A DNA stretch of 64,000 nt from a virus (IMGVR_UViG_2744054842_000001:11649-75648); one strand, 5' to 3'; positions 37,106 through 64,000 are shown, counted from the first letter of the stretch. Numbers and translations are program-made. The notes: generated by a model from the letters alone, not told the origin.

Positions 37106-37314
37106 CAGTGCTTCTCCTCAAGCTTGTTCAGCAGCCAGGCGGTAGGAATGGCAGCCAGCAGGATCGCCGGGCCTGCCATGAGGACCAGCTTCGCGGGCAA
37201 CCAAAGATCCAGCCCTACGGCGAACTTGACCCACAGGGTGAAGGCAGCAGATGCCGCGATGATCACGGTCGGAGCCAGGACGATCATCAGGACTGCCTTG
37301 AGGTAATTTCGCAT
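37105..37314 (-). CDS. Small membrane protein
   Basis: Two TM segments. Confidence 0.55.
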   Translation of the reverse strand: MRNYLKAVLMIVLAPTVIIAASAAFTLWVKFAVGLDLWLPAKLVLMAGPAILLAAIPTAWLLNKLEEKH

Positions 37315-56613: not shown

Positions 56614-56859
56614 ATGGAACCAGAAATCATCCACATCCCCGAACTGGCCAAGCTCCTTGGCCGATCCGAATCCGCCATCCGCAGCGCCCGGCAGGCCGGG
56701 GCATCCTGGCTGCCGCCGTTCTTCAAGCAAGGCGCCAGGATCTGCTGGCGGGTCAGCACGGTGCGTCAGTTTTTGCAGGAGTGCGAGAGCGGACTGCACA
56801 CGCCGGCGAAGCCAGGTCGGAAGCGCCAGGCGCCCCCGACGCTCGCCAGCGTGCGTTAA
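56614..56859 (+). CDS. Excisionase / AlpA-like HTH
   Basis: ELAKLLGRS..AIR, LPP.FK.G.RI.W; convergent with int. Confidence 0.75.
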   Translation: MEPEIIHIPELAKLLGRSESAIRSARQAGASWLPPFFKQGARICWRVSTVRQFLQECESGLHTPAKPGRKRQAPPTLASVR

Positions 56860-57833
56860 CCGAGCTTGTCAGCCAGGGTGTCGGGGCACAGATGCGTATA
56901 GCGCTTGAGCATGCTCAATGACTTGTGCCCCGTGATTGTGCTGACTTCCATCATGGACAGACCTTTTTCGAACAGCCTCGACGTACCTTCATGGCGAAGG
57001 TCGTGGAAGTGCAGGTCTTCAACGTTGGCCGCCCGGCAGGCCCGGGTGAAGTACTGGCTAACGGAGTGCGGAACCAGTGAAAAGACTTTGCCATCCAGGC
57101 GCGCCGGCAGCGACTCGAGCAGGTTGCGCGCGCGAACAGACAGCGGGACCAGTCGGCGGGTACCGTTCTTTGTGTCTTCCAGAATCACGTGCTTCGCTTT
57201 GACGTTCTCGCGACGGAGCGTCAGCAGTTCGCTACGGCGCATCGCCGTCTCTACCGCAATACCGATGATCGCCGGCATCTCAGCGTGGATATCGCCAGCC
57301 GCCTTGATCACATCCTTCAGTTCCTGGGCAGTCGGCCGCCGATCGCGCGACTTCGCCCCCTTCGGCATCCTCAGCCGAGCCACCGGGTTGCTCAGCCCCT
57401 CAATCCCCCAGTCCTTGATGGCCACTGTATAAAGGTGGCTGATCACCGCTAGGTCGAGCTTGACCGTCGCGGTGGACTTCCCTTCCTTGAGCTCATCATC
57501 CCTGTATGCAGCCATATCGCTTGACCGGATCGCGGCCAGGCCCTTCTTCGCCAGCTTGTGCTTCTTCCACTTGGCGATGCGGGTCATTTCCTGCTTTGCC
57601 CCTTTCTTCGCCGCGGTGACTTCGCGGGAGTAGCGATCGAGGGCCTCTTCCAGGGTGGTGCTCTCAGCCTCGCGCATGTCGACGAACCTGGCGCGCGACA
57701 TGTCGCCTTCGATTTCGGCAGCCCAGCGCTGGGCCTCGGCCTTGGTGTCGAAGGTCGCGGAGAGGGTCGGATATCCTTTTCGGCGGATCTTGGTCCGCCA
57801 TGCCCCGTTGGGGCGCTGCTCGATAGTGGCCAT
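56856..57833 (-). CDS. int: Tyrosine integrase
   Basis: TAMRRSEL, TKNG, FHDLRHE, TGHK...MLKRY catalytic residues. Confidence 0.95.
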   Translation of the reverse strand: MATIEQRPNGAWRTKIRRKGYPTLSATFDTKAEAQRWAAEIEGDMSRARFVDMREAESTTLEEALDRYSREVTAAKKGAKQEMTRIAKWKKHKLAKKGLAAIRSSDMAAYRDDELKEGKSTATVKLDLAVISHLYTVAIKDWGIEGLSNPVARLRMPKGAKSRDRRPTAQELKDVIKAAGDIHAEMPAIIGIAVETAMRRSELLTLRRENVKAKHVILEDTKNGTRRLVPLSVRARNLLESLPARLDGKVFSLVPHSVSQYFTRACRAANVEDLHFHDLRHEGTSRLFEKGLSMMEVSTITGHKSLSMLKRYTHLCPDTLADKLG

Positions 57834-57972
57834 GCACCGGATTTTGCCGGGGACACGTGGGACATGCAATTTCTTCGAGTGTCCCAGGATTGTCCCAAAT
57901 GGCCGGGGCCAGCAAAATCCGCAGGCATGAAAAAAGCCCCGCAACCTCAATGGCTGCGGGGCTTTCGAATGG

Positions 57973-58046
57973 TGGAGGCCGAGGTCGGAATCGAACCGGC
58001 GTAGACGGATTTGCAATCCGGAGCATAACCACTTTGCTACTCGGCC
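57973..58046 (-). tRNA. tRNA-Cys(GCA), prophage attachment site
   Basis: GGCCGAG...TTGCAAA...GGTTCGATTCC...CTCGGCCTCCA, 74 nt; upstream TTGCAA/CATAAT promoter. Confidence 0.95.
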
Positions 58047-58201: not shown

Positions 58202-59221
58202 TTAGCGCAGGCGGCCGAGTTTACTCCACAAGCCCACCACGGTGTTCTCCACCGTGCCACTGGCAGCCATGCCGATTCGCTCCTGCAGGCTCTTGCGTTC
58301 GGCGTAGTGCAGGTGGAACAGGTTGGCGTTGCGCGCGCGCTCGCTGAGGTACTCGTCACTGGTCTGCAGCTGGTCCACCAGCTTGCGGTTGAGTGCCGCG
58401 ACGCCCAGCCAGACTTCGCCAGTGGCCACTTCGTCGATGTGCAGCTGTGGACGATAGCGGGCAACGAAGTCCTTGAACAGCTGGTGGGTGATGTCCAGGT
58501 CTTCCTGGAACTTCTCCCGGCCCTTCTCGGTGTTCTCGCCGAACACGGTCAGGGTGCGCTTGTACTCACCGGCGGTCAGCACTTCGAAATCGATGTCGTG
58601 CTTCTTCAACAGGCGGTTGACGTTGGGCAACTGCGCCACCACGCCGATGGAACCCAGCACGGCGAACGGTGCGCTGACGATCTTCTCGCCGATGCAGGCC
58701 ATCATGTAACCACCGCTGGCGGCCACCTTGTCGATGCACACGGTCAACGGGATGCCGGCCTGGCGAATGCGCGCCAGTTGCGATGCGGCCAGGCCGTAGC
58801 TGTGCACCAGGCCACCACCGCTTTCAAGGCGCAGCACCACTTCGTCACGCGGGGTGGCGAGGGTCAGCAGCGCGGTGATTTCGTTGCGCAGGCTTTCGGT
58901 GGCAGAGGCTTTGATGTCACCATCGAAGTCCAGCACGAAGACCCGGTCCTTTTCCTCGGCCTTGCCCTTCTTCTGCTGTTTTTCCGCCTTGGCCTGCTGC
59001 TTGCGCAAGGCCTTGAGCTGGGCCTTGTCGAGCAGGCCGGACTCCAGGCGCTCGCGCAGGTCCTTGTAGAACTCGTTCAGGCGGGTGACCTGCAATTGCC
59101 CACCCGATTTGCGCCGCCCCTTGCCGCGCAGCCCGGCGATGGCCGACAGCACTATCAGGATGGCGATGACCAGGGTGGCGGTTTTGGCGAGAAAGCTTGC
59201 GTATTCAGCAAGAAACTCCAC
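58202..59221 (-). CDS. sohB: Inner-membrane peptidase SohB (S49)
   Basis: LESGGG.VHSYGLAASQL, AASGGYMMAC, TAGEYKRTL. Confidence 0.95.
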   Translation of the reverse strand: MEFLAEYASFLAKTATLVIAILIVLSAIAGLRGKGRRKSGGQLQVTRLNEFYKDLRERLESGLLDKAQLKALRKQQAKAEKQQKKGKAEEKDRVFVLDFDGDIKASATESLRNEITALLTLATPRDEVVLRLESGGGLVHSYGLAASQLARIRQAGIPLTVCIDKVAASGGYMMACIGEKIVSAPFAVLGSIGVVAQLPNVNRLLKKHDIDFEVLTAGEYKRTLTVFGENTEKGREKFQEDLDITHQLFKDFVARYRPQLHIDEVATGEVWLGVAALNRKLVDQLQTSDEYLSERARNANLFHLHYAERKSLQERIGMAASGTVENTVVGLWSKLGRLR

Positions 59222-59605
59222 AGTAGTCCTCAATGCCCGGAATTAAAGGGCTACGCTACCATGGCTTGTGACAGTTTGGTACGGTCTTGTGACATTCCGA
59301 AGCACTTGAGGCAGGCTCAGCGGCGCACCTTTCGGGCTTCCTTCTGGGTCCTTATCGCCTGCCCGTGAGGGTCCCTATCGCGCTCACAGGCACCCACGCG
59401 AGGGCCTACGGGGGAACCTGCGCGGGATGTCTTGTAATGGTGACCTTTCAGATTTTTCTGTCAGATTCTCGAAGGGCCTGCTGTGAGCTGACGAGCAGCG
59501 AACTACCGGCGACTACGCGACCATAGCCAGAGGGCTACACGGACGACCAGACAGGCCCAGAGGATGGCCTGTAAGTAGTCCATGGGGTTCTCCTTAGGTT
59601 GATGG

Positions 59606-60337
59606 TTATTTGATGGCCCTGCCCCACTGGTCGATGCCCACAAAGGCAGCTTCACGATTCATGGCATCAGCATTAGCTTTGAGCCATTCATTGAGGCCCT
59701 TGAGGGTGATCTTGAACAGGTGCCCACCATTTTTCGCTGTGACCAGATTGGAAGGCTTGAGGGCCGTGATGTAGCCCTCGCGCAGATAGTCCGGGTGTAG
59801 CTCGGTGAAAACCTGTGAGGGCGTCTCAAGGCTGACCTTACCGGAACTGATAGAGCGCTTACGGGCACGCCCACGGGAGACCAATAAGGCCAGTAGTTTG
59901 TCAGGATGGTTGATACCAGCGAGACGGCAGGCTTCACGCCAGCTATAGCCTACTGAGCGCCCCTTACGGACGTGCTCATTGAAAGCAGGTGCCATTGCAT
60001 TGACCCGTGCCTGGAGGTCGTTGAGAGTGGCGCTGATGGCCTGAGCGGCAAAGGCCGGGTCAGCGGCTTGCTCCAGTTCGATCCAACGACCTACCACGTT
60101 GTGGCGAAGACCCGTGTCATAGCCAGTGATGAGGGTGAAGGTAAGGTGCTTATCGAGGACCAGCATCGGCTTTTCACGGCCACGGCCATCGGTGTAGACC
60201 GCTTCAATGGCCTCAGATTTGAGGGCATTAACTTGAGAGAGAACCGCTCGGGCATCTCGGAGAACGTTGTCGTGGCGCTTGCCAGTCAGCTCAGCGATCT
60301 CAACGGAGGTCATGGTCACGTTGTTATTCATGTTCAT
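59606..60337 (-). CDS. Rha-family regulator
   Basis: MTSVEIAELTGKRHDNVLRD, LITGYD..LR..VV.RW.ELE. Confidence 0.88.
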   Translation of the reverse strand: MNMNNNVTMTSVEIAELTGKRHDNVLRDARAVLSQVNALKSEAIEAVYTDGRGREKPMLVLDKHLTFTLITGYDTGLRHNVVGRWIELEQAADPAFAAQAISATLNDLQARVNAMAPAFNEHVRKGRSVGYSWREACRLAGINHPDKLLALLVSRGRARKRSISSGKVSLETPSQVFTELHPDYLREGYITALKPSNLVTAKNGGHLFKITLKGLNEWLKANADAMNREAAFVGIDQWGRAIK

Positions 60338-60583
60338 TGTCGATTTCCTTTTGTTCGCCCTCTGAGTCGCACCCACGGACCAGCCCACAGACCCCGACAA
60401 GGGTGCTGGCGTGGCCTCAAAGGGCGAACAGAAGAACTGTGGATTGAATGCCCGTGCGTGGGCAGAAATGGTTTGCACATCCAGAAAATGGACGCACAAA
60501 GGGGAAGCTATGCAGAATTTGCACAGGTGACGCGGTGCCCCTGCCGGTCCCTCATTAGGTCCGGCCTTACGGGTTCTCTACGA

Positions 60584-61597
60584 TCAGCTCAGGACAATGC
60601 GAGTGACCAGCGGGAACGGTACTTGAACAGTCTGTAGACCATCGGTAGTCAGTTTCACCTTGACCATGCCGTTGGCGATGATGTCCACCATAGCCATGAT
60701 CTCAAGGTCCCAGCCTTGGGCGTTCGGGTTGCGGGTCGCTTCGATGCGCCAGATGTTGCCGTCTTGGCGCTCACGGTAGCTCAGCGAGGTGAACAGCTTG
60801 GGCAACATGAAAATGCCACGGTCGGTGCCGGTGTAGGGCTGAACGCCAGCGCCTATGAGGTCCTCGATAGAGTCCTGACCAGCACGTTGAGCAGCACGCT
60901 CAAGGACAGCCACCAGTGACACTGGCAGCAGGATCACGAAGTCACTCAGCGAGGTGCCCACAGTCTGGTTAACGTGGGTTGTCATAAGATCAATGAGTTC
61001 CTCAGCGATCTCGGTAGGCTTACCCGTAGGCATGGCCACGGAGCGACTCTCGGTGCTTGGGGCAGTCGCCAAGATGGTAGCGACCTTACCGGCTGCGCTG
61101 TACTCGATGTCCCGCATCATCTTGTCAGCGGTCTGTTCCATGGACTGGACAGTGAAGCCCGCTTGAATATTGTGGTCGAGAATGGTGACACGATGGCTGA
61201 TGACCAATGCTGTGTCGGTGGCCTCGGTGAAGATCACGGAACCAGCCAGGACTTCACCCTTCTCGACGGTCTGGTTATCCCAGTTCTTGCGAGGGTCAAA
61301 GGTGACGGAGCGGTCGGCCATGGTGATGATCTGTTGCCCAGTGGCCTCAGAGCCAGCCGGACGGAACTCGCAAGGAGTCGCCTCCATGGCAGCCTTTCGC
61401 CACTCATCGCCGTTCAAGTACTCCTCAGCGGCCTCCACAAGGGCCTCCACATAGACGGACACATCGGTGGCCGCTTGGGTCTCGGGGCGGACATCAGCAG
61501 TGTTGAATCGAATCGACCCGCTTAGGTGGCCGTTACCATCGTGGTAGGTGGCAGTGGTGTAGGTCGAAGGCTTGGTGTACTGGAATGGCTTAGTCAT
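60584..61597 (-). CDS. 337-aa hypothetical protein, possibly capsid-fold
   Basis: AGGAG RBS; size and pattern reminiscent of HK97-fold proteins (weak). Confidence 0.6.
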   Translation of the reverse strand: MTKPFQYTKPSTYTTATYHDGNGHLSGSIRFNTADVRPETQAATDVSVYVEALVEAAEEYLNGDEWRKAAMEATPCEFRPAGSEATGQQIITMADRSVTFDPRKNWDNQTVEKGEVLAGSVIFTEATDTALVISHRVTILDHNIQAGFTVQSMEQTADKMMRDIEYSAAGKVATILATAPSTESRSVAMPTGKPTEIAEELIDLMTTHVNQTVGTSLSDFVILLPVSLVAVLERAAQRAGQDSIEDLIGAGVQPYTGTDRGIFMLPKLFTSLSYRERQDGNIWRIEATRNPNAQGWDLEIMAMVDIIANGMVKVKLTTDGLQTVQVPFPLVTRIVLS

Positions 61598-61649
61598 GAT
61601 TATTGTCTCCTGAAGTGATTGAATGAAGTACGTGTCGAGGGCGGTGCTG

Positions 61650-62051
61650 TTACCAGCCACCACTATTGGCACGAGAGGCTGCTCGGATGCGTTCACTCTG
61701 CTCACGAATGGCAGCGGCTCGGGCCTCCCGATCAGCCTTCGCTTGGGCGATCTCTCGGGGCGACCATTCACGGCACCGCTCAGCATGGGCATTGGCCTCA
61801 GCCTGCAAGCGAGCACGCTGCTGAGCCTTCTGGTACTGGTCTTGGCGGTAATCTCGGGCGACATCGGGAATCGCTTGGAGCGACAGACCGGCCTCATCGA
61901 AGGTCTTAACGATTTCGAATTGACGGCCCTTCAGGGTGCCGCACTGGGCGACCAGCATCGGCAGCATGATGTTCTCGGCGTACTCTCGGTTCAGGGTTTG
62001 GCCGCAGATGGTGACTTCGTTCTTCAGGACCTTAGTGATAGTGATTTTCAT
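61650..62051 (-). CDS. Hypothetical protein
   Basis: AGGAG RBS before MKITITK. Confidence 0.65.
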   Translation of the reverse strand: MKITITKVLKNEVTICGQTLNREYAENIMLPMLVAQCGTLKGRQFEIVKTFDEAGLSLQAIPDVARDYRQDQYQKAQQRARLQAEANAHAERCREWSPREIAQAKADREARAAAIREQSERIRAASRANSGGW

Positions 62052-62267
62052 GGGTTGGGTTCTCCTATTGGGGACCCTTTGATTCGTCCTTGCGCCATAG
62101 ACGCGCACGACCAGACGGCCAAGGAGAAAGCCTTCGCGGGCATCTTCAAGGACGATCAAAAGGTTCTGGGTTTCAAGTGGTGCCAGTTGGCTGGCGGTGT
62201 TGATGACGCTGATTCAGGACATGGCAAGCCTGAAGGGCATCGAAGGGATCAACCGTGGCGACGGTCG

Positions 62268-62558
62268 TCAGGGGCGAGCGGTGAGGACCACAGGTACTGC
62301 ATTGACAGCATGGTAGAAACGAATCAAATCGAGGCCGGTGGCCTTTAAGGTTTCCTCAAGGGGAACCAAGAGGAACGCGCCCAGTTTGCCTGACACATAC
62401 TCAAGGCATCGCTCAGGGCCATTGCTGGTCCGAAGGTTTAGGATCTTGAAGTTAAAGACAGCCAGACGATGGCGACCGGTGGGCATGGCTGCCTCAATAG
62501 ACAACAGGGTCTCTTGGCGTCCTTGTGGAATGCCGTCAAGTACAAAGTGGTAATTCAT
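62268..62558 (-). CDS. Hypothetical protein
   Basis: AAGGAGG RBS. Confidence 0.65.
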   Translation of the reverse strand: MNYHFVLDGIPQGRQETLLSIEAAMPTGRHRLAVFNFKILNLRTSNGPERCLEYVSGKLGAFLLVPLEETLKATGLDLIRFYHAVNAVPVVLTARP

Positions 62559-62976
62559 TGAGACCTCCTTGAAGGCGACTGATCGAATAGGGGGATTATG
62601 GTCGCAAGACCGACCCCTAACTTAGAGGGGTCAGTTAGATTATCTTTTAGATCTTATTTTCAGGTTGATATAAAGATAATAATGATGGAGTTGCTCAAGG
62701 GGAATCTTTAAGTTAAGGCCCCCGAACAACTTGAGCGATACACGGTGGCCCCAATCCCGTGCATGGTCTACCCAACGGTGCCCTTCGTGGGCATCGGTTC
62801 ATGGATCAAGACAATATCAAGCTGTGCTCCTTCCTACTGGAGCCAGACACTGAGGTCTGCTTATCGGGGACTGTTGGCGCTGGCTCGCATCATCGTAATG
62901 GTGGCTGGTCTCTTATCGCTTGGTCGTCGCTGATCGGGAATCGCATGGATGCCCGGTAGGATTGCCCAGGATATCC

Positions 62977-62999
62977 TGTGGCCATAGTGAGTGGATCTG
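62977..62999 (-). promoter_or_regulatory. T7/gh-1-like phage RNAP promoter CAGATCCACTCACTATGGCCACA
   Basis: 19/23 identical to the copy at 63603; CTCACTATGGC core. Confidence 0.65.
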
Positions 63000-63063
63000 G
63001 ACGCCTTGAATTACGGGACCTCCAGAGGCTCCCCCCATAGGGGTTCACCTCACTAATAGCCCA

Positions 63064-63570
63064 TCATGCCCGTGCAAACTCCTTGTGGTTCCGCTCACGG
63101 ATCGCCCGTATACAGTTGGTCGCCGCCTTGAAGTTCTTCAGGTCCGACTCAAAGAGGCGTCCGCCTGCCATGACCGTGACTCGATAATCGCCATTCTTTA
63201 ACTTTGTGATTCCTTTTGGAAGCCCAGAGCGCTTCGATTTTCCTTTGGCATTCCAAGTATTCTCCTGAACGGTGCAGGCGCGTAGGTTCTCAACCTTGTT
63301 ATTCAACTGGTCGCCGTCGATGTGGTCGACAACAAGTTCGGCAGGGTCGATACCGGTGTGCATAAAGAAGATGACTCGATGGGTCCGGTAGAATTGGCCG
63401 TCAAACTTCATTCGATAGTAGCCGTCGCTGCCCATGCTCACGACTGGGCCGACTCGACCGTTTCGACCACGGGTGGCTTTGATGCGGGAGAGGCCCGAGG
63501 GGCTCGCCGGGTCGATCTTGTAGATTTCTTGAAGGGATTCGAGGGATGGCATTGGGGTAAAGCTGGACAT
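63064..63570 (-). CDS. HNH homing endonuclease (HNH_3 with AP2-like tail)
   Basis: HRVIF, VDHIDGD.LNN..ENLR..T..EN. Confidence 0.9.
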   Translation of the reverse strand: MSSFTPMPSLESLQEIYKIDPASPSGLSRIKATRGRNGRVGPVVSMGSDGYYRMKFDGQFYRTHRVIFFMHTGIDPAELVVDHIDGDQLNNKVENLRACTVQENTWNAKGKSKRSGLPKGITKLKNGDYRVTVMAGGRLFESDLKNFKAATNCIRAIRERNHKEFARA

Positions 63571-63602
63571 GGTTGTGGTCCTCCTATGGTTGGTTGTGGT
63601 GT

Positions 63603-63625
63603 CCTGGCCATAGTGAGGGGAACTG
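63603..63625 (-). promoter_or_regulatory. T7/gh-1-like phage RNAP promoter CAGTTCCCCTCACTATGGCCAGG
   Basis: Intergenic, just upstream of the HNH RBS; CCCTCACTATGGC core. Confidence 0.65.
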
Positions 63626-63637
63626 GGTAGTGACGTG

Positions 63638-64000
63638 CTACAAAACACCCACGGCAATCGGGTCGCTCGACTCAGCAGCGTTGTATTGGCCGGTCTTGCG
63701 GATGGTCGGAAGGACTTCCTCGGTGACCCAGCGGCGGAATGGTTCGGACTGAGGCGCCCGTCCACTGAGCAACATGGTGTAAACCTCGGACTCACTAAAC
63801 ATGACCGTGGTGTTACGCATCCGCCTGCCCTTGGAGTCAAGTGGGAGACTGGTATCGGTTTCCTGTACCAGTGCCATTACTTGGCAACCAGCTTTGCGCC
63901 ACTGGCGATTGTTATGGACCGCCGCCTTTGGGTTACCCAGACCTGCTGCCGCTGCTACCTGAGTCGCCACGAACAGCAGGTCATGCTCAGGGTGGCCCAC
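63638..64000 (-). CDS. Bro-N domain protein (5' end off-window)
   Basis: FSESEVY.ML....PQSEPFRRWVTEEVLPTIRKTGQY. Confidence 0.88.
   Translation of the reverse strand: MGHPEHDLLFVATQVAAAAGLGNPKAAVHNNRQWRKAGCQVMALVQETDTSLPLDSKGRRMRNTTVMFSESEVYTMLLSGRAPQSEPFRRWVTEEVLPTIRKTGQYNAAESSDPIAVGVL

Follow-up and report, generated by a model that had tools for sequence, protein, structure and literature searches.

Introduction

Can a bacterial chromosome carry an island that is wired to T7-like phages (Autographiviridae), and what would such an island do when one of these phages infects? The question is raised by one end of the viral record IMGVR_UViG_2744054842_000001, of which we analysed positions 11649-75648 (hereafter the window, 64,000 nucleotides that run to the end of the record; the record has 75,648 bases and is classed as a provirus in IMG/VR). 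From position 64000 down to sohB, all genes called in the window lie on the minus strand. A reading made from the sequence alone, without database searches (the sequence-only reading), had described them as a phage-type cluster of Bro-N, HNH, three unknown open reading frames (ORFs) and Rha upstream of sohB, and had proposed a satellite island that is switched on by the RNA polymerase (RNAP) of an infecting phage and then hijacks or aborts it. T7-like phages are strictly virulent and are used in phage therapy, biocontrol and synthetic biology, and a widespread island of this kind would affect phage efficacy, gene transfer in plant and soil Pseudomonas and the orthogonality of phage-RNAP expression systems. 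A chromosomal island wired to a phage single-subunit RNAP would also amount to a simple infection sensor, whether its outcome is hijack or defence.

Here we report that the window holds the right-hand 4.8 kb of an integrative island inserted in the 5' end of sohB, and that the family to which this island belongs is widespread in Pseudomonas. The family is likely to be a satellite of virulent phages of the gh-1/Ghunavirus type, induced by the phage polymerase, cut and packaged by the phage terminase and probably enclosed in capsids built from its own coat protein. The proposed wiring to T7-like phages is supported by phage-type promoters in most of the related loci, by mimics of both boundaries of the phage terminal repeat, and by an integrase with attachment (att) sites.

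Results

To place the cluster, we compared it with related loci fetched from public sequences (2 viral, 8 genome and 50 metagenome loci). Complete copies share one gene order: a tyrosine integrase (Pfam Phage_integrase in the relatives), a variable region with between one and four small genes (among them Bro-N and HNH), a DUF6971 gene, a gene for a 337-aa protein with a predicted capsid fold (the capsid gene), Rha, small ORFs, a mimic of a phage concatemer junction and an att site. Four kinds of insertion site show flanking direct repeats (nadB at its 3' end, sohB at its 5' end and two further genes); the DNA between the att repeats measures 6.5-6.8 kb, and the islands of the family as a whole about 6.5-7 kb. 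The sohB-type island in contig L020 is bounded by a 20-bp repeat, TTACTGTGGAGTTTCTTGCA, and related repeats flank L034, L053 and L012. The window matches this repeat at its attR core (ACTGTGGAGTTTCTTGC, 59226-59210), which with its att arm occupies 59210-59345 on the minus strand and overlaps the first sohB codons. Only attR is visible in the window; the island runs off the contig at 64000, and the contig end leaves out its left part, with the integrase gene and the second att copy. The sequence-only reading had looked to the adjacent DNA for an integrase, att sites and an RNAP gene; because the contig end cuts the element, no adjacent window exists to read, and it was the relatives that supplied the integrase and the att sites, with no RNAP found among them.

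Among public sequencing runs, none covers half or more of the island stretch. Logan contigs from three RNA libraries (X17, X18 and X20) are 85-95% alike to parts of 59200-64000, where they cover relatives of the capsid and DUF6971 genes, the junction region and the HNH and Bro-N genes; these contigs may be transcripts or carried-over DNA, and cannot show transcription, molecule ends or infection state.

The motifs that first tied the cluster to T7-like phages are two near-identical intergenic sequences, co-oriented with the genes. An exact 11-mer, CTCACTATGGC, occurs twice in the 64 kb (63617-63607 and 62991-62981, both on the minus strand), once in the gap between Bro-N and HNH and once in the gap between HNH and a 96-aa ORF, and comparison by eye found the two copies identical at 20 of 22 positions over CCAGnTCCnCTCACTATGGCCA. 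A chance origin was rejected, with 0.03 exact matches expected against the two found and no shuffle in 100 yielding two; only the exact match is significant, because 1.07 matches are expected once a single mismatch is allowed. The same 11-mer stands at six annotated gh-1 phage-RNAP promoters, and the gh-1 consensus given in the sequence-only reading was correct, agreeing with the gh-1 and phiPsa17 promoter consensus sequences printed in the available text of PMC4517105. Numbered by alignment to the annotated 23-nt gh-1 promoters, promoter-like site 1 (63603-63625, minus strand) spans -17 to +6; the eight bases upstream of its core are CAGTTCCC, matching the consensus TAAAAACC at three of eight positions, and its downstream part, CCAGGACAC, is identical to that of promoters in L008, L011, L018 and L020. 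Site 2 (62977-62999, minus strand), whose core is likewise exact, has CAGATCCA upstream (again three of eight) and lies within about 26 nt of the mapped position of a full-consensus promoter in L008. Sigma-70-like sites, by comparison, occur at chance level in the window part of the island (2 found, 1.8 expected).

Across the family, these promoters are both frequent and confined to one strand. In 35 of the 39 assessable loci, the coding strand has the 19-mer TAAAAACCCTCACTATGGC (up to three mismatches) no more than 2.6 kb upstream of the capsid gene; none of the 39 has it on the opposite strand, and 150 kb of chromosomal flanks gave no match. Among 67 matches to the core (up to one mismatch), 28 also carry the exact upstream sequence TAAAAACC.

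Beyond the promoters, the islands encode a predicted coat protein. The sequence-only reading had called three ORFs unknown, which holds in so far as none of them matches a family above its cut-off, but one, the 337-aa protein encoded at 60584-61597 (minus strand), has a predicted HK97-type fold. A first model from a shallow alignment (pLDDT 55.9) was replaced by an AlphaFold2 model from a deep alignment built by exhaustive profile search, which reached a pLDDT of 81 and a pTM of 0.76. Foldseek returned 280 matches to this model in the PDB at E <= 1e-3 (E 1e-8), and all those listed are HK97-fold capsid proteins or encapsulins. Structural alignment with VIA-align gave Z scores of 11.4 for the phi29 coat protein (274 residues), 9.5 for T7 gp10 and 9.2 for the capsid protein of EcCI2, a capsid-forming phage-inducible chromosomal island (cf-PICI); overall, Z was 9-11.4 over 210-274 residues, with 136 chains at Z >= 8 and low TM-scores of 0.3-0.4. 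The model thus predicts an HK97 (Johnson) major-capsid fold over most of the chain. The gene is the most conserved of the island and its product has 277 homologue clusters (E <= 0.001), of which all the named ones are from Pseudomonas and are called hypothetical. The protein has no Pfam or PHROGs match and no tblastn match in 50,697 phage records, and the PHROG matches found among its relatives concern a fused Ig domain only. A subset of the relatives, about 420 aa long (P0048, P0073, P0078 and others; for example, L012:10001-11272), has a Big_2 Ig-like domain at the C terminus, a feature also of phage coat proteins such as that of phi29 and reminiscent of decorated coats. A relationship between the 337-aa protein and the coat protein of gh-1 was considered and rejected, as neither BLASTP nor hhalign found similarity.

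Directly upstream of the capsid gene, in every case, stands the DUF6971 gene (in the window, 61650-62051 on the minus strand, encoding 133 aa with a weak DUF6971 match of 22.9 bits against a cut-off of 27). Its product has 274 homologue clusters, several of them named DUF6971 at source, and ends in an invariant N-x-G-(G)-W. Residues ~70-125 are rich in alanine, arginine, glutamate and glutamine, and we take this later, charged part to be helical. The sole solved relative, PDB 5EUR, is labelled 'uncharacterized', comparison with the gh-1 scaffold protein found no similarity, and a search of the ESM Atlas returned the protein's own cluster only. DUF6971 is a candidate scaffold or size factor for the coat.

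The third element shared with T7-like phages is the terminal repeat. Motifs resembling T7 ends had been noted from the sequence alone, and they proved real: BLAST against the phage records matched 59391-59475 to the place where the right direct terminal repeat starts in Ghunavirus phages, and the match as a whole covers 59346-59475. A focused search with 59340-59500 matched 65 phage records (53 from Pseudomonas, all of 37-42 kb), and where a record follows the standard start-to-end order, the matching stretch is found ~250 bp from its right end. Within this region, the 22-mer GAATCTGACAGAAAAATCTGAA (59447-59468, minus strand) equals the sequence just left of the right terminal repeat in gh-1 and KNP, and is identical in the window, in 7 of 10 island loci examined and in both phages, with one base different in L003 and L004. 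In gh-1 it occupies 37116-37137, five bases short of the repeat annotated from 37143, and T7 has a related counterpart, AAAAATCTGAGTGACTA, just before its own repeat. With up to three mismatches allowed, 21 of the 28 loci that could be assessed have the 22-mer downstream of the capsid gene, and no locus has it on the opposite strand. It is followed in the window by a mimic of the repeat start (59346-59446, minus strand), which includes GTTCCCCCGTAGG and was delimited by alignment to KNP and gh-1; similarity among islands of different insertion sites stops near 59346.

Two of the loci without the 22-mer, L008 and L012, carry recognisable diverged versions of the region (L008:11830-12150 and L012:12330-12690). 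The junction region of L008 matches only the repeat of a Yersinia T7-like phage and not that of Ghunavirus, and that of L012 found no phage match; divergence of this kind may mean that some islands have adapted to helpers of other lineages.

When the island ends were joined in silico, as they would be after excision, and compared with the gh-1 concatemer junction, they also matched the opposite end of the phage repeat. This second boundary motif, C[CT]CTATCTGT, lies outside the window at a constant place in 37 of 38 integrase genes, within the sequence encoding the integrase linker (for example, L005:6494 and L020:648). In 503 kb, it occurs nowhere on the minus strand and only once elsewhere on the plus strand. 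It aligns with the boundary between the repeat and the unique left region of gh-1, and with T7 GTCCCT|ATCTGT at 160/161, the T7 terminal repeat, which the T7 record does not annotate, being 160 bp long. Its codons (CCT/TCT-ATC-TGT), which we take to be rare in these G+C-rich genomes, show no synonymous variation while flanking codons vary, indicating a constraint on the DNA itself, and a DNA signal appears to be overlaid on the integrase coding sequence. In a circle or concatemer of the island, the two T7-type cut sites have the order and orientation that they have in the phage, and arithmetic puts 0.8-0.93 kb between them. At the level of sequence, the island would thereby carry the packaging signal of its helper, with both repeat boundaries of the T7 group.

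Promoters and a junction mimic of this kind would also be compatible with an island that defends its host and is itself not transmitted, and this is the main rival to a satellite. On that account, the phage polymerase would induce a dominant-negative coat protein, the HNH nuclease and the Rha and Bro regulators, the junction mimic would titrate or misdirect the terminase, infection would be aborted, and the island would spread by its integrase or by generalised means. The variable region does carry an HNH nuclease and Ant-like genes, and known satellites interfere with their helpers, to the point that the PLEs (elements resembling phage-inducible chromosomal islands) of Vibrio cholerae completely restrict ICP1 progeny, according to the available text of bioRxiv 10.1101/639039. 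A decoy, however, needs only one terminase site, which leaves two ordered boundaries across the att junction unexplained, and it does not readily account for wide spread over at least four insertion sites at a constant size of ~6.5-7 kb; such spread and constancy suggest efficient horizontal transfer and a packaging size limit. We therefore regard an untransmitted decoy as unlikely and favour the satellite, while recognising that sequence alone cannot decide between hijack and abortion of the phage.

The Bro-N gene has 70-85% nucleotide identity to early-region 'Ant' genes of ~40-kb T7-like phages (for example, CHF7 and Laces98), and in Laces98 the 'Ant' gene sits between the left repeat and the RNAP gene; identity of up to 85% implies that the islands and their presumed helpers have exchanged genes recently. 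Matches to Bro-N/'Ant' (63638-64000 in the window, L002:4383-5180) occur in T7-like phages of Pseudomonas, Dickeya, Klebsiella and Salmonella. When 41 gh-1 proteins were searched by tblastn against the window contig and the related loci, HNH alone matched, and no RNAP, DNA polymerase, primase, portal, terminase or tail gene was found in the window contig, 10 genome and viral loci and 50 metagenome loci. For the polymerase, the negative tblastn search with the gh-1 RNAP is stronger evidence than the absence of PF00940 from the window contig, a result that is weak alone, as control genomes also gave no match. A Pfam scan of the ORFs of the complete L005 island found no replication protein and no primase domain. 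The island thus lacks genes for autonomous replication, packaging and virion assembly.

The sequence-only reading had held that an element with its own RNAP and full virion genes would be a prophage, and the complete relatives encode neither an RNAP nor a T7-type virion module. That the element is a temperate T7-like prophage in decay, or else a miniature virus able to act autonomously, is very improbable on several further grounds. An integrase combined with T7-type promoters and ends does recall temperate T7-like phages such as LUZ100 (PMC10134795, in the text available), and the element does encode a capsid protein. Against this, none of the polymerase, portal, terminase and tail genes of such a phage was found in the loci searched, all complete copies keep the same compact gene order, the genes for the capsid and DUF6971 proteins are intact in over 270 clusters each, and the coat protein is unrelated in sequence to the coats of the T7 group. 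Decay of a T7-like prophage is excluded by this gene content and the conserved compact plan.

Discussion

Taking as observations the promoter and boundary motifs with their conservation, strand and position, together with the capsid fold, the att sites and the missing core genes, we propose the following cycle for a satellite of gh-1-type phages. The island would remain silent until phage infection, when the phage single-subunit RNAP would transcribe its operons from the phage-type promoters. The integrase would excise the island as a circle that brings the junction mimic together with the att site and with the 5' part of int, recreating both T7-type terminal-repeat boundaries in phage order, 0.8-0.93 kb apart. 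Because the island has no replication gene, the phage replisome is the presumed copier of the island into concatemers, which the phage terminase would then cut at the mimicked boundaries to yield unit-length DNA of ~7.5 kb with long terminal repeats. This DNA would be packaged in shells of the island's own HK97-fold coat protein, presumably smaller than those of the helper, with DUF6971 as the likely scaffold and with the phage portal and tail. T7-type terminases cut site-specifically and not by the headful, so we infer that a small unit genome needs a small head, which would explain why the coat gene was kept. The accessory genes Bro-N, HNH and Rha may modulate or harm the helper.

A bolder form of this proposal, which we offer tentatively and toward which we remain somewhat sceptical on balance, is that these are the first satellites of T7-like phages and form the smallest known tailed-phage-type particles. 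The coat protein and DUF6971 would then build a sub-T=7 shell on the portal, core and tail of the helper, the 0.8-0.9 kb 'terminal repeat' would enclose the att site along with the beginning of the integrase gene, and the RNAP of the invading phage would directly drive expression and perhaps prime replication.

Several observations weigh against a packaged satellite, or against the role of this particular copy. Excision and packaging, like every other functional step of the cycle, are inferred from sequence. Many homologues lie on metagenome contigs of 6.0-7.3 kb that might have been unintegrated islands; the ends of these contigs do not overlap, and both att repeats are present with short flanks, so that they are integrated copies and not excised or packaged DNA. 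Co-assembly with the helper portal is conjectural because the coat protein has no similarity to that of gh-1, and the scaffold role proposed for DUF6971 draws solely on position and composition. The second boundary motif lies in coding sequence, so its conservation may partly be at the protein level. The 22-mer is missing in 7 of the 28 loci and a recognisable promoter in 4 of the 39. Each of the window's own sites shares 14 of 19 positions with the consensus TAAAAACCCTCACTRTGGC (-17 to +2), namely all 11 of the core and 3 of the 8 upstream, and lacks the A-rich part from -17 to -12 that nearly all relatives keep. In IMG/VR, the window variant CAGNTCCNCTCACTATGGC has no match, and a looser pattern of it gave 16 single matches, never two on one contig.

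These last points bear on whether the window copy is itself inactive or retargeted, being unresponsive to gh-1-type RNAP or answering the polymerase of an unsampled phage. In both of its sites, CAG(T/A)TCC(C/A) replaces TAAAAACC, a variant upstream half that is unique among the 67 core matches in ~60 loci; that both sites have it in common argues for selection or copying and not for random decay. On the other hand, the core from -9 to +2 is exact in both sites, positions -11 and -10 are kept in the first, and all ORFs and the 22-mer are intact, and retargeting is without a known target because no phage with the variant was found in IMG/VR. We consider inactivity or retargeting of this copy rather doubtful.

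Among known satellites, cf-PICIs resemble the islands in having an HK97-fold capsid of their own. They are larger elements that use temperate helpers as a source of tails alone and have their own genes for a portal, a protease, head-tail connectors and the two terminase subunits, whereas complete islands have no portal, protease, connector or terminase ORFs. A precedent for the combination of signals comes from T7 itself: Chung and Hinkle are said to have found that plasmids with a T7 replication origin and the concatemer junction are packaged by T7 into transducing particles, so that a phage promoter and a concatemer junction reportedly suffice for foreign DNA to be replicated and packaged by T7. 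This combination of promoter and junction is also present in the islands; those plasmids, however, were reportedly laboratory constructs packaged as long concatemers in normal heads, whereas the islands are natural and integrative and have a coat gene. Likeness to PLEs and P4 lies in the activation of a satellite by the infection programme of its helper and in the redirection of capsid assembly. PLEs (~18 kb) and P4 (~11.6 kb) both have replication functions of their own and remodel the helper coat, and we know of no use in either of promoters for a phage-encoded single-subunit RNAP. The PLE helper ICP1 is, like the helper proposed here, a lytic phage (bioRxiv 10.1101/639039, text available in part).

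Very small size is shared with the PICMIs (minimalist chromosomal islands inducible by phage) of Vibrionaceae, of which PICMI115, at 6,110 bp, has a virulent helper and a minimal gene set. As far as the accessible part of PMC10803314 describes them, PICMIs encode int, an excision factor (alpA) and a primase and no capsid gene, lie next to fis, and are packaged as an 8-copy concatemer in full-size heads. The islands differ from them in having a coat protein, no primase, several insertion sites and T7-type cut signals that predict unit-length DNA. Jumbo-phage-transduced islands of Pseudomonas were rejected as the same element, as they lie next to tmRNA and carry defence cargo in the available description (PMC12595487).

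The closest resemblance is to the metagenomic 'twilight-zone' genomes, mini HK97-fold genomes of <11.6 kb described in a 2026 paper (Nat Commun 2026, PMC13669383; available in part). These, too, have an HK97 coat and a putative scaffold as their only structural genes, with an integrase and, in the text available, no terminase, portal or tail genes; the islands fall within the same size and gene criteria (6.5-6.8 kb, an HK97 coat and no portal, terminase or tail genes). The part of the paper at hand raises a satellite lifestyle as one hypothesis and does not identify the type of helper. The dominant twilight-zone group is described there as being from the human gut, ~8.75 kb long, with encapsulin-like Pfam domains and often with Rep or helicase genes. 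By that description, the islands are set apart by their Pseudomonas host, by a coat without a Pfam family and by the lack of a replication gene, as well as by promoters and terminal-repeat boundaries from which the helper lineage can be read. The same text (PMC13669383) takes direct terminal repeats on a contig as its criterion of completeness; island contigs have none because the copies are integrated.

In full-text literature, with subscription-only papers and supplements outside the scope of the search, we found no description of satellites of T7-like phages, of these islands or of DUF6971, and the statement in the sequence-only reading that islands with T7-like promoters had been described in enterobacteria found no confirmation. 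Among phage satellites, the phage-RNAP promoters, the split mimic of a terminal repeat and the island's own coat gene stand out. Because the helper lineage and the cut sites can be read, and because P. putida, gh-1 and their relatives are culturable, the satellite question is directly testable.

Other features of the window

The remaining island genes of the window were assigned by ORF calls, Pfam and PHROGs, which agree with the gene cluster first described from the sequence. The Bro-N domain gene (Ant-like; 63638-64000, minus strand; Pfam Bro-N E 1.4e-13, with matches to PHROG anti-repressor families) has its 5' end cut by the contig end. It is followed by a 168-aa HNH endonuclease (63064-63570, minus strand; Pfam HNH_3 E 6.6e-15, phrog_99 E 3e-35), which is 31% identical to the gh-1 HNH protein over 108 residues. 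Only some related islands have an HNH gene, which is an accessory gene of the variable region. A 96-aa ORF of family F5 (62268-62558, minus strand), which has no Pfam or PHROG match, is kept in L008, L010, L011 and L020. Downstream of the capsid gene, as in most related islands, lies the gene for a 243-aa Rha-family regulator (59606-60337, minus strand; Pfam Phage_pRha E 5.8e-12), a core gene of the island. Searches with HNH and Rha found generic phage relatives only (at most 51% identity) and no special tie to T7-like phages. Between Rha and the junction mimic, an ORF for a 26-aa hydrophobic peptide (59503-59583, minus strand) is conserved as DNA in L005-L011, and a comparable peptide can be read in L005. 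Phages of the T7 group have tiny genes just before their right end.

Preceding the 96-aa ORF, and separating it from promoter-like site 2, is an A+T-rich leader of ~430 nt (62560-62980) with the lowest G+C content of the region (0.50), an A+T-rich run and a hairpin (GACCCCT...AGGGGTC) near 62632-62609. T7 origins likewise join a phage promoter to an A+T-rich stretch, and by analogy the leader could be a candidate transcription-primed origin. An Rfam scan of 59200-64000 found no match.

After the island come sohB (Peptidase_S49; 58202-59233, minus strand) and, beyond it, a tRNA-Cys gene (57973-58046). The rest of the window is largely occupied by a separate temperate prophage of siphovirus type (400-57900), distinct from the island, with genes for a tape measure, a J-like tail protein, a portal, a head morphogenesis protein, a CI-like repressor and DNA methyltransferases, and with a further two Rha/Ant-like genes. 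The prophage integrase (56856-58016), which lies directly against the 3' end of tRNA-Cys, was rejected as the island integrase, being only 25-34% identical to those of the islands. It is this prophage that probably explains the provirus class of the record.

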